This document shows positions 4,790 to 59,000 of a DNA stretch of 64,000 nucleotides, in pieces. Within the stretch, counting starts at the first letter, position 1, and each line of letters begins with the position of its first letter. The position numbers and the translations under genes were made by a program. This DNA is from a virus: IMG/VR virus record IMGVR_UViG_3300045988_117002. One strand, written 5' to 3'. The notes below the pieces were generated by a model. The model made no database searches. It had not been told where the DNA came from and saw nothing but the letters and a program-made list of their open reading frames with translations.

Positions 4790-5243
4790 AATATAATTAT
4801 GAATATAATCTAATTTATAAAATTCATTTTCAAATTCCTTACTTATTGTATATCACTTCTTTTCTTTGAAACTCAAGTTTTAATAAAACAAGTCTTTCAT
4901 CTACATTTTTAAATTTATCACACTGACTCTCTTTCATTTCTTCTCCATGAAAACCCAATTGTAAATAACATTTATTAAGTATATTGCAGGTATCATAATC
5001 AACATAATATTATAAATCAATTCTATCATTCTTAATTACTCCTAAAACTCACATTTTATCTATGTTTTTGATATATTTTTAAAACTTTCAAATTTCATAT
5101 GACAATACGTTTCAAGTTTTGTAGCTATGTCAAATTAAATAGTTATCGTGTATATTACATAGCTTTTAGTGAGTGCTTAACCTCACCTTTCAGGTGCAAA
5201 ATCACCTGTACATTTCTGCAATGACGTGAATGAAACCACGCTT

Positions 5244-9073: not shown

Positions 9074-9121
9074 TTTACATCGCCCCTTTCATTTTTATAA
9101 ACGTTATTTCTCCGTTTTGAA

Positions 9122-9195
9122 TGGAAATTGTGGGACTTGAACCCACGACCTATAGTTTATGAGACTATTTCTCTAACCAACTGAGATAAATTTCC
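9122..9195 (-). tRNA. tRNA with CAT anticodon (elongator Met or lysidine-dependent Ile2)
   Basis: Hand-folded 74-nt cloverleaf on the minus strand: acceptor GGAAATT/AATTTCC, D arm TCTC-AGTTGGTTA-GAGA, anticodon arm ATAGT-CTCATAA-ACTAT, variable AGGTC, T arm GTGGG-TTCAAGT-CCCAC, discriminator A. The 1-72 pair is G-C, so it is not initiator-like. No encoded CCA. Confidence 0.85.
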
Positions 9196-9321
9196 ATAAA
9201 ATACTTAAAAATGAGTACAAAAACTACGATGAAAGCCGACTTTCATTTGTAATATTTCTCTATATTTAGTTGTAATTAATTGGAATAATCGCAGAAACGC
9301 TATGATTAATAAAGATTTTGC

Positions 9322-12459: not shown

Positions 12460-13623
12460 TTATAAATTTATAATTGCAGGGTGTGAATATGCACCCACTA
12501 TCTCATTTGTAGTTACATTTGAGAATACTTTTCTCATAATTTGAAATGCACCATTAACATCCGCATTGATATATTCTCCGTTATTACTCTTAAATAATCC
12601 ACGTTTAATACGTCTTGATTTATTATAATTTTCTTTTATTGGTAACTCATTATCAAGAAAACTCGTTCCTGATGTATAGCTTTCTTCTGTCTTAATCAAG
12701 TTAATTCCAACGCTTTCACATTTATATTCAAGCTTATTGATAAATGTTTCGTATGGAATATACACAAAATTTTGATTAGTAACTTTATTCATTTCAGAAT
12801 TTTGTTTCCATTTATCGTTCTTTCCTATAACAATCGTACCAATATCGTATTTTATACAATAATTGACAATATATTTACTTGCACAGTGCATAAGGTATTC
12901 CATCTTGAAATATCTTTTATCTGTTAATTTTTGCATTTGTTTTGTCCAGTTAAGATCGTTTACTGTTTTGGCAATACTTCTTAATCTCGACATTTTCTTA
13001 TTCCAATATTGATTATAAGATTTTATTCCTTTGCCATTTATAACAATAGAAGATTCTCCTATGTTATTTACAATTGTTACAAAGTTATTTAATCCCAAGT
13101 CAATTGCAGCAATTCTATTACTGTTTAATTGGTAAATGTTTCCATCATCCTCATAAACAATTTCAATAATATAACAACCACCTTTAGGAATAATTCTTGT
13201 TGATAAATGATGTCCTTTTACATTTGATTTAATCAAATTGTTATAAGGTTTCATTCTCTTAAAAGCAAAATATAAATATCCATCTTTAATATGTGTTTGC
13301 ATGTTAGTTAATGTACAAGTAAATCTTCCATCTTTCTTCTTATAAGCAGGAATTTTCGGTTTTCCTAAATATTTTTCTGGATGTAATGTATAATCTTTTA
13401 CAGCTACAAGAAATGATTTCCACGATTTACATAATATTTTTGTAACCATTTGAGCAGAATTTGATCCTAACTCTTTAAATGCATCTGTACTTTTCAATTC
13501 TTTATTCAAGTCCCCATATTTTTTAATTTTTTGAGTTTTAAAAAATTCTTGACGGATAGTATAGTTGCAAAGATTATACATATTCTTTGATAAATAACAT
13601 AACTCATCACATATTTGAAACAT
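12460..13623 (-). CDS. tnpB: TnpB-like RuvC-fold protein (IS200/IS605-IS607 OrfB family)
   Basis: RuvC-I AAIDLGLNNFVT, RuvC-II INLIKTEESYTSGTS and RuvC-III INADVNGAFQIMRKV. No CxxC zinc finger between II and III. The reading frame stays open about 60 nt upstream of the ATG without a canonical start. Confidence 0.8.
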   Translation of the reverse strand: MFQICDELCYLSKNMYNLCNYTIRQEFFKTQKIKKYGDLNKELKSTDAFKELGSNSAQMVTKILCKSWKSFLVAVKDYTLHPEKYLGKPKIPAYKKKDGRFTCTLTNMQTHIKDGYLYFAFKRMKPYNNLIKSNVKGHHLSTRIIPKGGCYIIEIVYEDDGNIYQLNSNRIAAIDLGLNNFVTIVNNIGESSIVINGKGIKSYNQYWNKKMSRLRSIAKTVNDLNWTKQMQKLTDKRYFKMEYLMHCASKYIVNYCIKYDIGTIVIGKNDKWKQNSEMNKVTNQNFVYIPYETFINKLEYKCESVGINLIKTEESYTSGTSFLDNELPIKENYNKSRRIKRGLFKSNNGEYINADVNGAFQIMRKVFSNVTTNEIVGAYSHPAIINL

Positions 13624-37753: not shown

Positions 37754-38609
37754 TGTTATACCTCCTGTTATATATTGTTTATTCTCTTTTTGTTCTCATT
37801 TTTGCAAGCCATTATAATTCAACATTAGAAATTATTTATACTTGACTACTACTCACCGCCACGGGTCTTACGCTTTTGCCCGTCTTTCAAATAACTTTGC
37901 TTGTTGATAATGCCTTGCAACCTAAGTAAAACAAAAAAGTAAATGCTTTATGATATAGAATCAACCACATTTACAAGAATTAACTATTTCGGCAGTCATC
38001 CGCTTTTAACGATTGTATGTTATCGGAAAGTTTTATGTATCATTGATAGATGTTACCTTTCAAACTATTTCAGTCTAAACAAAATCTTAGGTCTTTGTTT
38101 TGCATCTTTCCCCGTTTTTTGATCAGATACGGACAACTGAACTTTTTGTTATTGTTACCCTGTTCACATGGGCTTTTGGTTAGACTTTTTATTTACTTGC
38201 TATCTTGTCAGTATCGCAACCCTTGCAAGAAACTTTATAGCAGTTTATACTTTGTTGCTCTGTATTTTACAAGACTTCTCTTGTCTGGATTTAGTTTATG
38301 TATTACCAGAATCAAAAATCTGTTTTTTTTTTGAAAAGAAATAGATAAAACTTTTTGTTGCAATTGCTTTTTAAGATTTTAAAAATCTTTTGAGATATCC
38401 GATTAAAGCTAACCAGATGTCGTTAGACTTGAGGTATCTACTTTTTCAAACTCGACGCGCCCTCACGGGATACTACACGGCTCATAGCTATTAACTAGAG
38501 ATCTCACGAATTATTTCGCTTTACCTCACAAGCGGTAACGACTCCGCTTGTCACAATATGAAGTTTTATGTATCAACTTGTTTCCCTCTGTTGATGGTAT
38601 TACTATAAC

Positions 38610-38623
38610 ATAGGGTACCCTAT
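38610..38623. promoter_or_regulatory. operator O1: perfect 14-bp palindrome ATAGGGTACCCTAT
   Basis: Self-complementary 14-mer; a second identical copy lies at 38686-38699. Confidence 0.7.
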
Positions 38624-38629
38624 TAGTCA

Positions 38630-38643
38630 ATAGGTTACCCTAT
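38630..38643. promoter_or_regulatory. operator O2: ATAGGTTACCCTAT (one mismatch)
   Basis: Lies 6 bp after O1; 13/14 identical to the palindrome. Confidence 0.6.
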
Positions 38644-38685
38644 GATTTTTTATGTTTGTGAATTGTGTATAATTTACATATTTGT

Positions 38686-38699
38686 ATAGGGTACCCTAT
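38686..38699. promoter_or_regulatory. operator O3: perfect 14-bp palindrome ATAGGGTACCCTAT
   Basis: Occupies the spacer between TTTGTA (38681-38686) and TATAAT (38703-38708). Confidence 0.7.
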
Positions 38700-38731
38700 T
38701 AGTATAATATATACAAATGACCATAGAAAAG

Positions 38732-38760
38732 TTGACAAGATAAAGCTATAATGTTAATAT
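38732..38760 (+). promoter_or_regulatory. sigma-A promoter of the rightward arm
   Basis: TTGACA (38732-38737), 17-nt spacer, TAATAT (38755-38760). The predicted start falls on ACTACTCTT (38766-). Confidence 0.6.
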
Positions 38761-38832
38761 GTAATACTACTCTTACACCAAAAATGAAAAGAGAATTATT
38801 ACATATAATAAATAAAGGAAGGTGTAAGAATT

Positions 38833-39021
38833 ATGGCATATAGCCCAAAATCACAAAAAGATTATAATGATAGATGTACAGTTGTAAAACTTAAATATAC
38901 ACCAGAAGAAACGGAAGAATGTGCAAGAATGAAACGGTATGCAAAAGATAATAACATACCAATGAGCGTATATATCAAGAAGCTAATACAGGATGATCTT
39001 GACAGAAAAGGTTATAAATAA
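38833..39021 (+). CDS. ribbon-helix-helix-like small protein
   Basis: AAAGGAAGGTG RBS. VVKLKYTPEETEECARMKRYAKDNNIPMSVYIKKLIQDDL has the strand-helix-helix layout and resembles the 15683..15870 product. Confidence 0.55.
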   Translation: MAYSPKSQKDYNDRCTVVKLKYTPEETEECARMKRYAKDNNIPMSVYIKKLIQDDLDRKGYK

Positions 39022-39025
39022 ATAT

Positions 39026-39472
39026 ATGATAGACGATAAAATAACAAAAGAGCACATAGAACATTTAAGAGACATAAACTATTATGATGCTTTAAAGTTG
39101 TTTGATAATGGAAATATACGTTATTTATATGATGATTTATTTATAGAGTATATACGCCACATAATAAAGAAATGCTTGTTTATAACTGATACTGATAACA
39201 TGACAGATATAATATATAAATGTTTTGTTGTATCTGGTAACGTGTCAAGATGTCTTAATATGCTTAGATATAATAATATACAGTATAATCAAAAGTTATC
39301 AAATGGAAGATATAGAGTTAATAAGGAAGACGTATATAACGCTTTGAATAATGGTAGATGTGCAGATATTGAAATAGATTTTATAGCACATTTATTATGG
39401 TATGGAAGAAACTACAATGAATTAGATAGTTATATAGATACTATGTTGTCAAAGATAAAACAGTTGTATTAA
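39026..39472 (+). CDS. hypothetical protein
   Basis: Track ORF 38993..39472. The ATG at 39026 avoids overlap with the upstream gene. Confidence 0.5.
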   Translation: MIDDKITKEHIEHLRDINYYDALKLFDNGNIRYLYDDLFIEYIRHIIKKCLFITDTDNMTDIIYKCFVVSGNVSRCLNMLRYNNIQYNQKLSNGRYRVNKEDVYNALNNGRCADIEIDFIAHLLWYGRNYNELDSYIDTMLSKIKQLY

Positions 39473-39876
39473 CCGCATATAATAGGAAGTAACCCTTTAT
39501 CAATCATTGTGATCTGCATAACCTGTTATCATGCGTAAAATGTACAGATAGCCTTGTAAGCTTGTATTTTGCGTTTTAAGGGCTTTTATATCGTATATGA
39601 TAATTATTATAGGCTTATATGCTTAAAGTCATTTATACGGCGTTTTACAAGGTTGTTTTTAAGATAGGATGTACAAAAAGGTTACATCTGGACTGTTTGA
39701 AACGTGCAACATGATGATATTTATGTATCATTTTAATACATTGTTGAGCGTATTTTTACGTCAAAATGTGCGCTATTTTATGCAAGAATATTGTGTATTT
39801 ATACATTGTTTGCGATGTGTTTTTATGCAAAAATTTGTATAAGATAGCGTTGTTTTTATGGGTGGAATAGGTAAAA

Positions 39877-39898
39877 TATTGCGGTAAAATTGCGGTAA
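39877..39898. repeat. perfect tandem 11-mer ATTGCGGTAAA x2
   Basis: Copies at 39877-39887 and 39888-39898. Confidence 0.8.
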
Positions 39899-40680
39899 AG
39901 TGTGAGTATTTTATCTGATTTATGATGTATTTTTATCTTGTTTAATGTGTGGTTTTATCTGTTTTTATGTGGTGTTTTATGTCCTGTTTTGAGATAATTT
40001 TGTTGTGATCTGTTGTTATATTTTAATCTCTGGACGGTGTTAGAATGCTGTATCTATAATGATTTTAGATGATACAGATTGTATAATGTGGCGTGGTTAG
40101 TGTGGTTATATTATGCGTTGTTTGTGTGGTATTATGTTAGATTATGTGAGTATGTATTGTAGTATATTGTATAGTATATCAGAGGTATTATAATAGTAAT
40201 ATTATGTGGTATATTGTAGATGTATAGTTGGATATAGATAGATGTATATTGTGAGTTATATGTGATGTATAATGTATATTATGATGTATATTATTGTATG
40301 TTTATGGTGTGAATTAAGCGTGAGTATTTGATGTGATAGTATGTTATGTTAATATGATTTTGTAGTGAGTTTGGGATGTAATCTTGTCTGCTGTTGTGCG
40401 TCCAGATTGTTTTATTTCGTCCAGATTTGTGTTATGTAAGTGTGTTACAATTTTTGTGTTACATTTGTGTATTATAGTGTAGTGGTGTGCCATCCCATTT
40501 TTACCGCTGTTTTTGATGATAAAGTGGAGTGTATTAGTCTTATTTGTTACGTTTTTGTGGTGTAAGTGGTGATATGATTTTGTGTTATTATTTTGTGTTA
40601 TAATCTTGTAATCGAATTTTTTGTTGGAAATCCAACATAACGAACAGAATTGACCAATAGTCATTTATTTACGTTTTTTC

Positions 40681-40726
40681 GCTCATTTTCTCTTGTTTTC
40701 TCTTATTTTCTCACTTTTCCTTTTTT
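40681..40726. repeat. four T-tracts phased at exactly 10 bp (..TTTTCTC..)
   Basis: cattttctc ttgttttctc ttattttctc acttttcc. Helical phasing predicts intrinsic DNA bending. Confidence 0.7.
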
Positions 40727-40748
40727 CGAGTATACTATAATAATATTT

Positions 40749-40766
40749 ATAATTGTATATACAATT
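40749..40766. repeat. 18-bp perfect palindrome TAATTGTATATACAATTA
   Basis: Self-complementary. It sits where the plus-strand composition flips from C-poor to G-poor. Confidence 0.8.
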
Positions 40767-42062
40767 AAAATCTCCCGTCCGTGATCTGCGTCCAGAATAC
40801 CCAATAAAATTTTAGTTTTATCATACTAACTTTTATATCCTGTACCACCCCCATGTTTTTGACCGGAGTAAAAATGTCAAATAATAACAAAACTTGACTT
40901 TTTACACTTCCTACAAAAGTGCAAAAGTTAGTTTTATTCAACAATAGCAAGGCTTTTCGGGAATTGCATATTACACTATTTTAATCCGATTTTATGATCC
41001 TGTTTTATAATGTATACCAGTAGGACGGGGATAGTTTACATTTGTAATTTTAATATGATATTGTCATATCCACTGATGAGTTCAACTCACACTACTCGTC
41101 CAAAAATCAAAACTGGTAATCCATCATCCCACACTCGCCTCCAACAGAAAAAATTCTCACCCTCACATCACCTCACAAATTGCACCAAATCTACACACAA
41201 CTCACCAAAATAATCAAAATGAGTTCGAGACGGAGTTCGACCGCACCCTTACATGTCAACGCAAAATAAATTTTCTGACAATTCTAAATCACCAATTTTC
41301 ACCCAAAATTACCTATCCCAAATCACAATATCCCTTGCAAAATCTAACAATTTACGAAGTCCTCTCGAAGCGATACCATCACATAATAAATTTAATCTGC
41401 GCACAATTCCAAATAATTTACTCCATCTTCATCCTGCAATATCCCAAATTCCCTTGCCACATCTACCTAAAACGCAGCAATCACTTCTTATTATAAGCAC
41501 ACATCACTCTCCCATCTCAATCAAAATTATCACCCAAAACACTCCCCTCGAAGTCCCAAATCTCAGCTTACCAGAAAATACCCATCTAAATTGTGTTAAA
41601 CTTTCGCACAATTCTAATCACTAAAATTTACTTAAAAAATATATCATAAAAACTTGAAGTGCCAAATTGACACCTCAAGATACAATCATCAAAAACTCTA
41701 AAATCAATTTTATTCTCACTATTCTAATGTACAACTTAAAGCAGACATCACAACTACCCTCACCTGAGCAACTTAGCATCTGCATATTACAATTTTCAAA
41801 TTAAATCTACATCATATTATCTGCAATAAATATCTCAAACAGAGAATCTTATATACAAAGATATATAGGGGGTACTTTTACATCTACAAAAAATCACTAC
41901 TCTCATATCCCACCTAACCTCAAATTTTCACCAGCAAAAATAAATCCTATTTATTTCAAATAGAGAATCTACAACCAGTAACATGCAAACTAAATATTTC
42001 AATACGCAAAGAGAGAAATAATAATTATCAAAAATCATTAAAATAAAAAGGAGATTACACAA

Positions 42063-42686
42063 ATGAATAATAAAATTAACAGTAATGAATATTTGACTAA
42101 ATATTTTAATGGCACAAGATTATATCCTATCAATCTTATTAATTATTTTAAACATTATTACAATTATGATTTTTGCTACCAACATAATGATAATAATTTT
42201 GATGGATCTTTAGATATTATTTTGGATTATCAAGATGCATATAGATTAATTACTTCAAATATATTTCAACCACTTACAATATACAAATGGAATTTTTCAT
42301 CGGCAACATTAAACAAAATCAAATCCATAACAAACAAATATCTTGCCGATAAGAGAATATACATACCAAAAATAACACCAAAATCATACTACTATCTCTC
42401 AAGGGGATATGGTAAATCAATCAGAGAATTGCGTTATTTCATAAAACTAATATCAGATTCAGAAAAGAGTCAATTTTCATATAATCCATATTCATCAGAA
42501 TATACAGTGCAAAATTATAAATCTGATATGGAGAATTTATATAAGAAGATAATATCTGAAAAGATACTTAACTCATATGAAACACAAAATAACTCTACAA
42601 AACAGAAAAGTAATAACAAAGAAGAAATGAGCTGCTTAAAAATTATTGCCGATAAAAACAATATAAATAAGAAATTTCACAAATAA
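42063..42686 (+). CDS. hypothetical protein (Asn/Tyr/Lys-rich)
   Basis: 207-aa ORF; AAAGGAGAT RBS. Confidence 0.6.
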   Translation: MNNKINSNEYLTKYFNGTRLYPINLINYFKHYYNYDFCYQHNDNNFDGSLDIILDYQDAYRLITSNIFQPLTIYKWNFSSATLNKIKSITNKYLADKRIYIPKITPKSYYYLSRGYGKSIRELRYFIKLISDSEKSQFSYNPYSSEYTVQNYKSDMENLYKKIISEKILNSYETQNNSTKQKSNNKEEMSCLKIIADKNNINKKFHK

Positions 42687-46283: not shown

Positions 46284-46727
46284 ATGATGAGAAAAATGGA
46301 TTACAAATATTTCTCAAAAGCCAAGCAGATTGCACAGGTGTCTGATTTCCCAAAGGTACATATTGGATGTATCGCTGTTTATCAGAATCGCATTATCGGA
46401 ATTGGTTGTAATACAAATAAAACTCACCCTACCCAGAAGTATTATAACCGATACAGAATAGATGACAACGATTTTGATAATTCTGAATCACTTCTACCAA
46501 AACTCCACGCAGAAATAAATTGTATAAATCAACTGAAACATTTGAATATTAATTTTTCAAAAGTCAAGTTGTACATATATCGCACTAGAAAAGATATTGT
46601 GTGTGGAATGGCTAGACCTTGTGCAAGCTGTATGCAAGCGATAAAGGATCTTGGAATTAGAGAAATATATTATACAACAAATGATGGTTATTCATATGAA
46701 AAGTTAGAGAAAGGATGTGTTGCTTAA
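46284..46727 (+). CDS. dCMP (deoxycytidylate) deaminase
   Basis: Zinc-binding CDA signature LHAEINCI ... ARPCASCMQAI; size and layout match ComEB/T4-Cd-type deaminases. Confidence 0.85.
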   Translation: MMRKMDYKYFSKAKQIAQVSDFPKVHIGCIAVYQNRIIGIGCNTNKTHPTQKYYNRYRIDDNDFDNSESLLPKLHAEINCINQLKHLNINFSKVKLYIYRTRKDIVCGMARPCASCMQAIKDLGIREIYYTTNDGYSYEKLEKGCVA

Positions 46728-51033: not shown

Positions 51034-51865
51034 AATTCACCACTACTCTTCTATTCGGATATTTACAAGAGACTAAGATTGATTCGTAATGGTCAATCGG
51101 TTCAGATGCAGATGAACTGTGATGCTGCGAGGTAGATGATAATACCAGAATTGTCATAATTAAAATTTAAAAAAGAATATGTCATACATATTATTATAGA
51201 TATTATTGGGTAAGTATAAGTTATACTTAACATTGGAAATTTAAGAAAAATCAAGATGATTCGTTAATCAACATTACGTTTCATTAATGCGAAAATACAA
51301 GATTTCATTATTTCGATATTCCAACAATTTGTAAATTCGATAAAACAATATACGTTTCGTTAATATTAATTCTTAAAAGAATATATCGGGCGAAAAGCCT
51401 AAACATTTGAAGGGACGAATTATTCAAATTCGATCGAAACATTTGTGTTTCAGATGAAATTAAAAGGTTTTGTGCAATTTTTGTACAGATTTTTAGCAAA
51501 TTGGTTGAGATTATGGAGAAATCTTAGTCTGTTTTATGTATTCGAATGGATGTTAGTTTTACTACGGTATATTTTGATGCCGAAGAGTGAGAACTTAGTT
51601 ACTCACTAAAATCTATGTTTTAAAAAAATAGATACAAAACTTATGAATATCCGAATAGAAATACAGTTATAATTAATTTTGCGATTAATTGGTATAGTAA
51701 TCGGTGGTTGCACTGTTGTTTCGCCTTTCTTTTAACGGTGCAATCGCTGGTTTTCTTTTGATTATAATAAGAAAGCTGAGTCGTGATATTTGAGCCGAGA
51801 GGTGAATGATATGTAAAGTAAATTTTTGATTAAAAGATAATTAGACTATTTGAAAAGACAGATAT

Positions 51866-51950
51866 GGCAACGTGGCAGAATTGGCAAATGCTCCTGACTT
51901 GAAATCAGTGAACCCGAAAGGGTATGTGGGATCGAAACCTACCGTTGTCG
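51866..51950 (+). tRNA. type-II tRNA-Ser (anticodon TGA)
   Basis: Hand fold: acceptor GGCAACG/CGTTGTC (one G.U), 3-bp D stem GCA/TGC, anticodon loop CTTGAAA, long variable arm ACCC-GAAA-GGGT, T arm GTGGG-ATCGAAA-CCTAC, discriminator G. Atypical A at position 54 and a 27-43 mismatch. Confidence 0.65.
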
Positions 51951-52019
51951 TTACTCTCCTACTTGGAGAAATAAATGCAAAGGACGTGAATTGTTATAAA
52001 AGCAATTAGTAAAAAAGAA

Positions 52020-57959: not shown

Positions 57960-59000
57960 GTGAGATTATTGGATGGTAAAATCGCAGATAGATCTGTTGA
58001 AATAACAGATGAAGAATGGCAAACAGTAAATGAATTTAATAGAGAAATGGTTGAGGATTATCTTGATAATCAAGCTGACCTTTCTGTAAAAACTTTGCCA
58101 GCATATAAATCGGGATTAAGGATTTTCTTTATCTGGGTTAGGGATAACCTCAAGGACAAGAATTTCACCGATATCAAAAAGAAAGAATTTCAAAAATATC
58201 TTAATTGGTTAACCAAAAGAGGTTTTTCTGATTCTGGTATTAAATTTAAAAAATCTGCTGTAAGTACATTTTGCAATTATGTAATGATGATGTATGAGGA
58301 AGAATATCCTACATTTCGTAATTTCACAATTGGGCTTAAAGTAGTACAAACAGGATATGTTCATGAAAAAGTTCCTCTTACCCCAGATGAATATATTAAT
58401 TTATGTCAAGAACTTGAAAAACGTGAAGAATGGCAAATGTTAGCATATCTTACATTTTCTTACAGTACAGGATGTAGACGTGCAGAAGCTAGACAATTAC
58501 TCAAGGAAGTAATTGATTATTCTGCAAACGAAAAGAAAATCAAAGTTCTGGATGAAGATGGACATGAATATGAAACTATTTCAAAACAGTATTTGACTCA
58601 CACTATTCGTTGCAAAGGAGCATCTCTTGTAGGTAAACCACGTAAACTTAAATTCGGTGATGATGCAATGCAATGGTTGAAAAAATGGATTGAAGTACGT
58701 GGCGAAGATGACTGTCCTTATATGTTTGTAATTAAATCTAAAGATGGGAAAGAAGTTAGACAAGTGAGTGAAAGCACTTTTAATAATTGGTGTCAAGGAT
58801 TATTTACACAAATTGTTGGACGTAGGGTGCATCCTCACTTATTCAGAGAGTCAAGAGCTACAAACCTTGTTGTGTTTCAGCATAAAGCACCAGAGGTAGC
58901 TCAGAAATTACTAGGACATAATCAAGTTACTACGACTTTAGATCATTATATTATTCGTAATGATGAAAATGATGAGTCTGATGAAGCATTTACCGATTGA
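57960..59000 (+). CDS. tyrosine recombinase / integrase (XerC/D-like)
   Basis: SYSTGCRRAEARQL (Arg I), HPHLFRESRATNLV (H-x-x-R), LLGHNQVTTTLDHYI (His/Tyr). Start is GTG 57960 or TTG 57969. Confidence 0.85.
   Translation: MRLLDGKIADRSVEITDEEWQTVNEFNREMVEDYLDNQADLSVKTLPAYKSGLRIFFIWVRDNLKDKNFTDIKKKEFQKYLNWLTKRGFSDSGIKFKKSAVSTFCNYVMMMYEEEYPTFRNFTIGLKVVQTGYVHEKVPLTPDEYINLCQELEKREEWQMLAYLTFSYSTGCRRAEARQLLKEVIDYSANEKKIKVLDEDGHEYETISKQYLTHTIRCKGASLVGKPRKLKFGDDAMQWLKKWIEVRGEDDCPYMFVIKSKDGKEVRQVSESTFNNWCQGLFTQIVGRRVHPHLFRESRATNLVVFQHKAPEVAQKLLGHNQVTTTLDHYIIRNDENDESDEAFTD

Follow-up and report, generated by a model that had tools for sequence, protein, structure and literature searches.

RNA that contains almost no G, and that therefore consists of A, C, and U and is free of structure, is known from the omega leader of tobacco mosaic virus and from synthetic G-less cassettes, which are eukaryotic or synthetic sequences of tens to a few hundred nucleotides (nt) that serve translation or as in vitro tools. 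The same property is found in the locus described here, a gene-free gap of 2.6 kb at positions 39473 to 42062 of a 64,000-nt stretch of DNA (IMG/VR record IMGVR_UViG_3300045988_117002, called the window below) from a ~175-kb phage of the human gut. On the plus strand, the gap consists of a C-starved left arm and a G-starved right arm on either side of a central core, and it lies at the point from which both blocks of genes diverge. Unlike the omega leader and the G-less cassettes, its G-starved tract is kilobase-long and has a Shine-Dalgarno (SD) sequence only at its very end.

Other known systems resemble the gap in other respects. The immI region of phage P22 (arc/mnt-ant) is an immunity-type control region in which small repressors are encoded upstream of an antirepressor gene. 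The likeness to the gap is one of gene layout: palindromic operators accompany a small RHH- or HTH-type cassette on the upstream side, and a gene for an AntA-type antirepressor follows on the same strand downstream, but here a 2.6-kb composition-skewed spacer and a gene for a 207-amino-acid (aa) protein stand in between. Known replication origins include the points of GC-skew switch in circular replicons and the transcript-dependent phage origins, such as oriF and oriG of T4 and the ori transcript of lactococcal phage c2. Like these, the gap is a noncoding stretch between divergent blocks at a skew minimum and contains repeats, bent DNA, and an AT-rich stretch; unlike them, it shows no enrichment of DnaA boxes and has no recognisable initiator gene beside it, and its local skew is reversed. 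To our knowledge, the exclusion of one base on a kilobase scale has not been described as a feature of origins. In vertebrate mitochondrial DNA, one strand is GT-rich and the other AC-rich, as in the gap, an asymmetry ascribed to the deamination of both C and A along the strand that stays single stranded. The mitochondrial asymmetry is genome-wide and graded with exposure time, whereas in the gap only two arms of opposite sign, each with sharp boundaries, are affected, and the synonymous sites on their flanks are normal.

Finally, Rho utilization (rut) sites, or C>G bubbles, such as rutA and rutB of lambda tR1, are C-rich, G-poor, unstructured, and untranslated, are defined by composition and YC dimers (general rules in PMC6144790), and can form a leader 5′ of phage early genes; the right arm, read as RNA, would share all of this. 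Known C>G bubbles are ~80 to 350 nt long, compared to a putative Rho-dependent tract of ~1 kb with 3 to 7% G in the gap, in what is probably a Firmicute host, and the mirror-image C-free arm has no counterpart in rut sites. Rut sites, G-poor viral leaders, origins at skew switches, and mitochondrial DNA are the nearest known systems, but none of them combines kilobase length, near-exclusion of one base, and a mirror partner with a composition that is conserved throughout a family whose sequence is not. No description of such a feature was found in the literature.

Mirror-image base depletion at the divergence of two gene blocks

The phage has ~30% GC and uses the standard genetic code. In the window, the minus strand carries the genes up to 37.75 kb, and the plus strand carries them from 42063 onward. 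The nearest database record, MT835469 (176,210 bp, human faeces), is 81% identical across the gap. Its two gene blocks, at 4 to 92 kb and 92 to 172 kb, are nearly equal (~85 kb each), and GC skew switches at both junctions. The gap is therefore the sole point at which two near-equal halves of the genome diverge.

A first-pass annotation, made from the letters of the window alone, had counted by hand 4 C at 40081 to 40380 and 37 G at 41101 to 41640, and the recount was exact on both (A82 C4 G78 T136 and A204 C162 G37 T137, respectively). Over longer spans, the composition is A24 C6 G23 T47% at 39900 to 40660 and A39 C27 G7 T27% at 41050 to 42000. The sliding-window analysis that the annotation had proposed showed a GC skew (100-nt windows) of +0.85 to +1.00 at 40100 to 40350, a change of sign at ~40620, values of about −0.4 to +0.2 up to 41050, and values of −0.5 to −0.8 across 41050 to 42000. 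The annotation had also held that chance depletion of a comparable degree elsewhere would speak against the feature, and here the two arms differ. C depletion in the left arm is the most extreme in the window, where the lowest 300-nt count elsewhere is 23 C. G depletion in the right arm, taken alone, is not, since its 18 G per 300 nt compare with 14 to 18 on the plus strand opposite minus-strand genes.

The combination of skews in the arms is also distinct. Coding strands of this phage are purine-rich (G>C with A>T), and the plus strand opposite minus-strand genes shows C>G with T>A. In contrast, the left arm shows G>C with T>A and is thus keto-rich, and the right arm shows C>G with A>T and is amino-rich. 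Keto skew (G+T−A−C) reaches the extremes of the window in the two arms, at +0.47 and −0.39 (mean 0.00, standard deviation 0.095; z of +6.2 and −5.3). In MT835469, the eight top 300-nt windows of keto skew for one sign all fall inside its copy of the region; for the other sign, five of the top eight do, and the remaining three lie just past it, over the first rightward genes.

Composition is kept while the sequence drifts

The close relatives that were compared comprise 34 viral-contig loci, 30 metagenome contigs, and ten further contigs. All of them have the C-starved and then G-starved pattern, so the depletion is indeed kept while the sequence drifts, a behavior that the first-pass annotation had suggested looking for by alignment. 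Identity among close relatives is 57 to 99% in the left arm and 69 to 92% in the right arm, and that at third codon positions of the downstream genes is 0.70 to 0.95, about the right-arm level; the gap evolves at about the synonymous rate or faster. Directly compared in close relatives, conservation was 0.84 to 0.92 for the right arm and 0.80 to 0.95 for third codon positions, and it was lower for the left arm. Constraint on the sequence of the arms is slight outside a few blocks, namely, 40870 to 40960, the boxes at 41031 to 41112, G islands of the TTCGA type, AAATTGTGT, and the SD sequence. The substitution spectra of the arms are mirror images (A/G 217 versus C/T 96 on the left, C/T 159 versus A/G 47 on the right), and substitutions toward the excluded base are under-represented.

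A wider family of 80 loci on 150- to 220-kb contigs was found through a 907-aa protein encoded downstream of the gap (60 to 79% identical). In blastn comparisons, these loci matched the gap hardly at all. A C>G tract of 0.2 to 0.95 kb, mostly at least 0.4 kb, with G at 0.04 to 0.10 and C at 0.20 to 0.32, nevertheless lies 5′ of the plus-strand block in 73 of them; in the other seven, the upstream sequence is too short. The tract always adjoins the first SD-led rightward gene. In distant relatives, it starts with GGGGTAG..AAAAC, followed after ~45 nt by ATAGCTGATTCATCCACACACCAACTCAAAAA, and this start is recognisably homologous to 41031 to 41112. In about half of the loci, the locus-wide maximum of keto skew (0.25 to 0.38) is found just 5′ of the tract. 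Near-total exclusion of C, however, is confined to the clade of the window, whereas the largest clade is merely T-rich there and others have a weaker GT-rich segment. This means that the arms are separable features, of which the right arm is the universal one.

In total, more than 100 contigs of the family were found, and one of its proteins occurs in 132 collection blocks. This large family of 150- to 220-kb phages, which is common in human gut metagenomes, has a kilobase element at its main control point that is detectable by composition-based analysis only. The region also accounts for the breaking of assemblies of these phages at this place. Fourteen contigs from different assemblies (L007, L055, L064, L066, L069, L070, L074, L076, L078, L079, L082, L089, L092, and L094) begin inside the C-starved arm, at points scattered 136 to 1011 nt 5′ of the conserved core block, probably as a result of strain-level mosaicism and low complexity.

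Selection on composition versus mutational decay

C makes up ~8% and G ~12% of third codon positions in the window, which gives a GC content (GC3) of ~20%. The base that is retained in each arm stands two- to threefold above this level (23 to 26% G on the left, 27 to 30% C on the right), and the genes that touch the arms have normal third positions. Because the retained base is enriched against AT pressure while adjacent third positions are normal, we favor the view that composition, rather than sequence, is maintained by selection. One option in the first-pass annotation was a footprint of strand-specific C-to-T deamination on decaying DNA. Decay in this simple form is disfavored because deamination would halve the GC content, yet the arms stay at 27 to 37% GC. 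The option is further weakened by the enrichment of the retained base, by the normal third positions on the flanks, and by a composition that holds past the point of alignability; a bias acting on two bases still fits and is weighed below.

Absence of coding sequence and of known RNAs

The gap had been described as free of credible coding sequence, and this was borne out, as no open reading frame (ORF) is conserved in frame among relatives. The alignments were also checked for homologs in which these segments clearly encode protein. The three ORFs singled out earlier, at 40344 to 40664 (minus strand), 41010 to 41213, and 41253 to 41624, instead carry frameshifts or in-frame stops in most of 19 relatives, and the explanation that they stay open only because TGA and TAG cannot occur there was judged correct. 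Among the 23 ORFs of at least 25 aa in the gap, only one, of 29 aa (41180 to 41269, without an SD sequence), is intact in 15 of the 19 relatives, and it lies inside the best-conserved 200 nt. Independent gene callers left the gap empty in nine of ten other contigs and made one 48-aa call in the remaining contig, and alternative genetic codes (TAG, TGA, or TAA recoded) gave no meaningful rescue of ORFs. ARAGORN and Rfam searches, the latter at gathering thresholds, found nothing in the region; at a relaxed threshold, the best Rfam match had E = 1.8. RNAalifold gave −15.7 kcal/mol over ~630 aligned nt of the right arm and revealed no compensatory pairing within the clade; it found nothing in the core.

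Physical and rut-like properties of the outward strands

Read outward from the center, the strands of both arms consist of A, C, and U (or T), so the earlier claim that a nearly G-less strand runs outward in both directions holds. The weakest-folding 300-nt segments are found on these strands, at 40101 on the minus strand in the left arm (−3.5 kcal/mol) and at 41301 on the plus strand in the right arm (−12.2 kcal/mol), compared to means of −49.7 and −44.9 kcal/mol, respectively; the right-arm core as a whole folds with minimum energies of −12 to −28 kcal/mol per 300 nt. Start triplets occur at 9 to 14 per kb in the outward strands versus 48 to 58 for the window (13.8 versus 48 for the right arm), and SD cores occur at 1 to 2 per kb versus 3.5 to 9.6. 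Read inward, the arms would give GU-rich RNAs that fold more stably than average.

The largest C>G bubble on the plus strand is that at 41024 to 42052 (area, 18,287 % × bp), and the largest on the minus strand is that at 39496 to 40671 (17,018 % × bp). Nadiras et al. (2018) found that every tested template with a bubble of >78 bp or an area of >700 % × bp terminated in a Rho-dependent manner in vitro (PMC6144790). Measured against the thresholds of that work, both bubbles qualify as C>G tracts that run without interruption for ~80 nt or more on what would be the non-template strand. The right arm also has spaced YC dimers, with 15.8 YC per 100 nt and 41 starts of the motif (YC-N9-13)4, and its RNA would be untranslated and poorly structured, as judged from the lack of a conserved ORF, the few starts, and the weak folds.

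A possible Rho-loading gate before the rightward genes

On this evidence, our preferred but tentative reading is that the right arm is a long, untranslatable, structure-free leader that works as a Rho-loading gate, or as a looser element of transcription polarity, before the rightward early genes. We infer the transcription of the arm, its direction, and the involvement of Rho. The gap would then be a noncoding early-control region at the sole divergence of the gene blocks, with the right arm, from 41065 to ~42050, forming a ~1-kb untranslated leader of the rightward block. Since the arm is nearly G-free, the leader RNA would have almost no start codons, SD sequences, or structure, and since it is C-rich and dense in YC, it would be an ideal rut-like tract for the loading of Rho. 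Transcripts that come in from the core or the repressor cassette upstream would undergo termination, except when Rho is blocked or antitermination has been established at the conserved boxes, which stand at the start of the tract and would be the decision point. Such a gate would postpone or restrict the expression of the 207-aa protein, the AntA-type antirepressor, and genes farther downstream. When read leftward, the left arm would be G-free and structure-free and might insulate the regulator genes against antisense transcription; read rightward, it should be invisible to Rho because it is C-free. Alternatively, it may be a Rho-invisible tract for protein binding, given that four of the five copies of the motif CGTCCAGA in the window fall within 40029 to 40796.

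Divergent, unstructured G-less leaders or long noncoding RNAs had been another option of the first-pass annotation. For the right arm, this option fits best, as the tract lies 5′ of the first rightward gene family-wide, is structure-free with few starts and SD sequences, and has conserved boxes. As a general rule, two equivalent leaders find no support, because the extreme left arm is clade-specific; its absence from the largest clade speaks against intrinsically symmetric models.

Some observations bear on polarity. A minus-strand hairpin at 41679 to 41643 has variable positions that stay paired, as G·U, on the minus strand only, and because this terminator-like hairpin stands at the right edge of the G-starved tract, leftward transcripts from the gene side would stop before entering it. 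In the few helices predicted for the right arm, G·U wobble pairs are allowed on the plus strand only. A terminator scan detected none between the upstream regulator operon and the arms. A scan for sigma-70 promoters returned 28 sites versus 32 expected, and two candidates, TTTACA-18-TATTGT at 41035 and TTGGCA-16-TATATT on the minus strand at 41665, were rejected because they are not conserved.

Several points weigh against a Rho gate. First, no conserved promoter of the sigma-70 type was found anywhere in the gap, and none reading into the right arm. Second, Rho dependence would be predicted here from Escherichia coli rules, and the host is probably a clostridial Firmicute. Third, 1 kb far exceeds the length that a rut site needs. 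Fourth, C>G bubbles with large areas, of 8 to 16 thousand % × bp, are also found on strands antisense to ordinary genes. Fifth, the left arm read leftward is only weakly rut-like, with 8.3 YC per 100 nt and three (YC-N9-13)4 starts. Finally, a Rho gate explains neither the enrichment of G in the left arm nor the hypervariability of that arm and its CGTCCAGA sites.

Should the right arm prove to be a Rho gate, it would be an exceptionally clear example of regulation encoded in composition and would offer a handle on the timing of early genes and of the antirepressor in these uncultured phages. If the region instead marks an origin or genome ends, as considered below, it would be a landmark for orienting and curating these genomes. 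Either way, unalignable, ORF-free phage DNA can be strongly constrained.

Alternative explanations

Of the alternatives, taken from the more to the less probable, an origin of bidirectional (theta-type) replication is possible, although unlikely. The core would bind an initiator, and the arms would provide each 5′-to-3′ helicase that moves outward, and each nascent leading strand, with a G-free, hairpin-free single strand, perhaps with activation by transcription. The placement agrees with this, as the gap is the sole divergence of two near-equal blocks that converge opposite it, with GC skew switching at both points in MT835469. The phage also encodes a Xer-like tyrosine recombinase, as expected of a circular replicon, and the region has a phased T-tract array, an AT-rich stretch, degenerate tandem units, and four CGTCCAGA sites, together with an AA/TT periodicity of ~11.25 nt in the left arm. 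However, the periodicity is inconsistent across the family, the candidate initiator sites (the four CGTCCAGA sites and the tandem units) are clade-specific, and the extreme left arm is missing in the largest clade even though both forks should need it. DnaA boxes are not enriched, and the flanking proteins have no initiator, helicase, or primase match in Pfam, PHROGs, or NCBIfam. In addition, the sign of the local skew is opposite to expectation, with the GT-rich strand running toward the center, and the genome-wide skew tracks gene orientation and need not reflect replication. The broader proposal of the first-pass annotation, a replication or packaging landmark, may still hold: the gap is at the single strand switch of a genome that resembles one with two replichores. 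However, DnaA boxes are not enriched, a recognisable initiator and fixed contig ends are missing, and the skew has the sign of a terminus or genome end rather than that of an origin.

A more doubtful idea is that the arms represent an undescribed type of phage element, defined by the exclusion of one base from one strand, whose kilobase-long G-free outward strand is used as a single-stranded nucleic acid. Possible uses are a hairpin-free start zone for replication or transcription that is copied without (d)GTP, a decoy RNA for a host factor, or DNA nearly free of restriction or guide-target motifs that need G and C on one strand. In a possible variant, the nearby CDA-fold deaminase or a deaminase of the host actively maintains the skew.

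It is improbable, but consistent with much of the composition, that the arms are a mutational footprint without function. In this case, one strand of each arm would be recurrently single stranded, for example, as the strand displaced by an R-loop from inward transcription or as a 3′ tail. Deamination of its amino bases (C to T, A to G) would then make unconstrained DNA drift toward GT-richness. The arms do evolve at a roughly neutral rate, a gene for a CDA-fold deaminase lies 4 kb downstream, and the departure from genome composition is one of nearly pure transitions (in the left arm, A −10, G +8, C −9, and T +11 points). A two-base deamination bias reproduces the composition well because the purine fraction remains near 50%. 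On the other hand, single-strandedness would have to be persistent and sharply bounded, as the third positions of adjacent genes are normal, and the skew shows no monotonic gradient from the center. The arms also have more GC (27 to 37%) than GC3 (~20%) and contain conserved G-containing motifs and boxes. Furthermore, rightward transcription of the right arm, which the gene order suggests, would expose a C-rich non-template strand and thus give the wrong sign; the arm would need leftward transcription or a 3′ tail instead.

An abundant long noncoding RNA that acts in trans is a rather remote prospect. The G-free right-arm RNA would soak up a host factor, such as Rho, a KH or cold-shock-type RNA-binding protein, or, through its CCUC or UCCC motifs, SD sequences. 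The physical properties are as favorable for this as for a leader, the conserved boxes lie at the 5′ edge, and the composition is conserved without sequence conservation. The idea is, however, purely inferential: neither a promoter nor a 3′ end is defined, k-mer analysis found no repeated binding unit, and there is no relative in Rfam.

Physical genome ends or a packaging site are less probable again. Under this explanation, the core would be a short terminal repeat collapsed by assembly, and the arms would be end-proximal DNA in which telomere-like, GT-rich 3′ strands, exposed by resection or incomplete lagging-strand synthesis, favor the loading of a recombinase. The GT-rich strand does run 5′ to 3′ toward the center in both arms, the neutral center of ~400 bp matches the size of known short terminal repeats, and phage c-st, with 404-bp repeats, has skew of the same sign beside its ends, but that skew is weak. 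Contig breaks cluster in the region, yet they are spread over ~900 nt instead of sharing one position, which is what strain heterogeneity would produce. In most complete-length contigs, the region is internal, MT835469 has no terminal repeat, and the extreme left arm is absent from the largest clade.

Lastly, the chance that the gap consists of decayed or unusual protein-coding genes, real or recently lost, is negligible, since its ORFs, although 67 to 123 aa long, are broken by frameshifts and stops in most relatives, lack SD sequences, gain nothing from alternative genetic codes, and lie in keto- or amino-skewed DNA unlike the purine-rich coding strands of this phage.

Parts and motifs of the region

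After the gene for a 159-aa protein, the gap begins with a moderately conserved proximal segment (39473 to 39850; 80 to 91% identity to relatives) with G>C. It contains no conserved ORF, as that at 39669 to 39842 is broken in relatives, and a scan of its plus strand for terminators was negative. The left arm proper (39850 to 40660) is C-starved and GT-rich on the plus strand (about A25 C6 G23 T46%) and is low-complexity sequence with degenerate tandem units of 7 to 23 nt. It is the most divergent and mosaic part of the region; 75% of its alignment columns are variable, with A/G outnumbering C/T. The motif CGTCCAGA, of which a search of the window found five exact copies in 64 kb, is present in the arm as an inverted copy on the minus strand at 40029 to 40036 and as two direct copies on the plus strand at 40399 to 40406 and 40418 to 40425. 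The direct copies carry some of the few C of the arm and are kept in most close relatives. Among 41 distant loci, 11 have GTCCAGA at a fixed place in the core.

The central core (40660 to 41064) has near-neutral skew and includes a T-tract array with a 10-nt period (40676 to 40712), an AT-rich stretch (40730 to 40770), a fourth CGTCCAGA (40789 to 40796), and the best-conserved block of the region (40870 to 40960), in which a hairpin-like AAAAATGTCAA-N13-TTGACTTTTT is found. Box 1, GGGGATAGTTTACA (41031 to 41044), and Box 2, CTGATGAGTTCAACTCACACTACTCGTCCAAAAATCAAAA (41073 to 41112), both on the plus strand, are held at a fixed spacing and show where the G-starved tract starts; a search for a consensus RNA structure in the boxes was negative.

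The core of the right arm (41065 to 41645, plus strand) is G-starved and C/A-rich (about A38 C28-30 G6-7 T25-27%). The G island GAGTTCGA-N4-GAGTTCGA, which had been reported at 41220 to 41239, is present, but direct reading places it one base farther, at 41221 to 41240 on the plus strand. Its complementary or inverted partners are CGAAGTC (41355 to 41361), TCGAA (41365 to 41369), and CCTCGAAGTCC (41546 to 41556). This set of motifs is retained in distant clades, where GTTCGA has changed to GTTCGG in concert with TCGAAC to CCGAAC, a pattern compatible with short RNA or single-stranded DNA helices or with repeated protein-binding sites. Farther along lies the conserved AAATTGTGT (41585 to 41600). 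Where the strongly G-starved tract ends on the right (41643 to 41679), the minus strand has the conserved hairpin, with a 9-bp stem and a 9-nt loop followed by a U-run, which looks like an intrinsic terminator for leftward transcription. The distal G-poor segment (41680 to 42062, plus strand) is indel-rich, with a 27-nt insertion and ~110-nt deletions in relatives, and ends with the conserved SD sequence AAAAGGAGAT (42046 to 42055, plus strand) that precedes the first rightward gene at 42063.

Two further candidates were rejected. The 16-bp palindrome AATTGTATATACAATT (40751 to 40766) was considered as a site of the telomere-resolvase type, but relatives mostly have C at one position, and ~3 such palindromes are expected by chance. 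The arms were also considered as a degenerate inverted repeat or long hairpin; local alignment of the left arm with the reverse complement of the right arm scored 27, compared to 28.9 ± 3.3 for shuffles. A k-mer search for iterons gave weak, degenerate repeats only, and the motifs shared between the region and the rest of the window are chance 11-mers.

Flanking genes and other features of the window

To the left of the gap, two small plus-strand genes encode a 62-aa RHH-like protein and the 159-aa protein, the latter ending at 39472. In relatives, this regulator cassette is replaced by HTH_3 cassettes or by cassettes of 65-aa and 194-aa proteins, in some cases with HTH_26. The 14-bp palindrome ATAGGGTACCCTAT occurs there in three copies, at 38610 to 38623, at 38630 to 38643 (with one mismatch), and at 38686 to 38699. 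Beside them lie two promoter-like sites, a rightward TTGACA-17-TAATAT (38732 to 38760) and a leftward TTTACA-16-TATAAT (38888 to 38861), and the palindromes and both sites are upstream of or overlap the ORF of the RHH-like protein (38833 to 39021). The segment from 38600 to 38900 thus looks like a switch made of operators and face-to-face promoters. Between the last minus-strand gene and this operator region, ~830 nt (37754 to 38583) have no ORF, reach 40% GC, and gave no match in Rfam. Homology among relatives drops sharply at ~38584, and two independent contigs, L024 and L025, end within a few bases of this point.

To the right of the gap, the genes encode, in order, the 207-aa protein of unknown function, the AntA-type antirepressor, a GIY-YIG protein, the CDA-fold deaminase, and the 907-aa protein, followed farther rightward by a beta-CASP nuclease, an exonuclease, a ClpP-like protease, and a Xer-like recombinase. 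Sequence searches of Pfam, PHROGs, NCBIfam, and PDB with the 159-, 207-, and 907-aa proteins were uninformative; the 159-aa protein has six close homologues only, and the AlphaFold model of the 207-aa protein was unusable (pLDDT [predicted local distance difference test] of 40). The first rightward gene (42063 to 42686) is itself G-poor, with 8.7% G at third positions, 10.8% at first and second positions, and a keto skew of −0.31 at 42475, which means that the bias of the right arm spills into it. In many relatives, the N-terminal 46 to 77 residues of its product are replaced. The exact 207-aa protein is also present on three contigs of 0.2 to 1 Mb, one of them 302,254 bp long. All three exceed the ~176 kb of the phage genome; these could be prophages in a host chromosome, larger relatives, or misassemblies.

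The deaminase (46284 to 46727; 147 aa) has the zinc-deaminase motifs HAE...PCxxC, and its homologues match dCMP_cyt_deam_1 and, weakly, MafB19-deam in Pfam. It is most likely a dCMP deaminase of nucleotide metabolism, although its place beside a region with a deamination-like skew is noteworthy. The recombinase (57960 to 59000) is a tyrosine recombinase of the Xer/integrase type (PHROG 1, E = 1.5e-38; XerC model, E = 2.5e-23), which points to a stage of the life cycle in which the genome is circular or integrated. Strong SD sequences and one contig binned in a Lachnoclostridium metagenome-assembled genome hint at a clostridial host.

Elsewhere in the window, another ORF-free gap of ~450 nt (4790 to 5240) is very AT-rich and holds the G minimum of the window (14 per 300 nt), without an enrichment of C like that of the right arm. 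An element of the IS200/IS605 type lies inside a block of small genes and encodes an RNA-guided endonuclease of the TnpB family (12460 to 13623, minus strand; NCBIfam NF040570, E = 1.5e-47). Two tRNA genes are present, one for tRNA-Met (CAT) at 9121 to 9196 on the minus strand and one for tRNA-Ser (TGA) at 51865 to 51951 on the plus strand.

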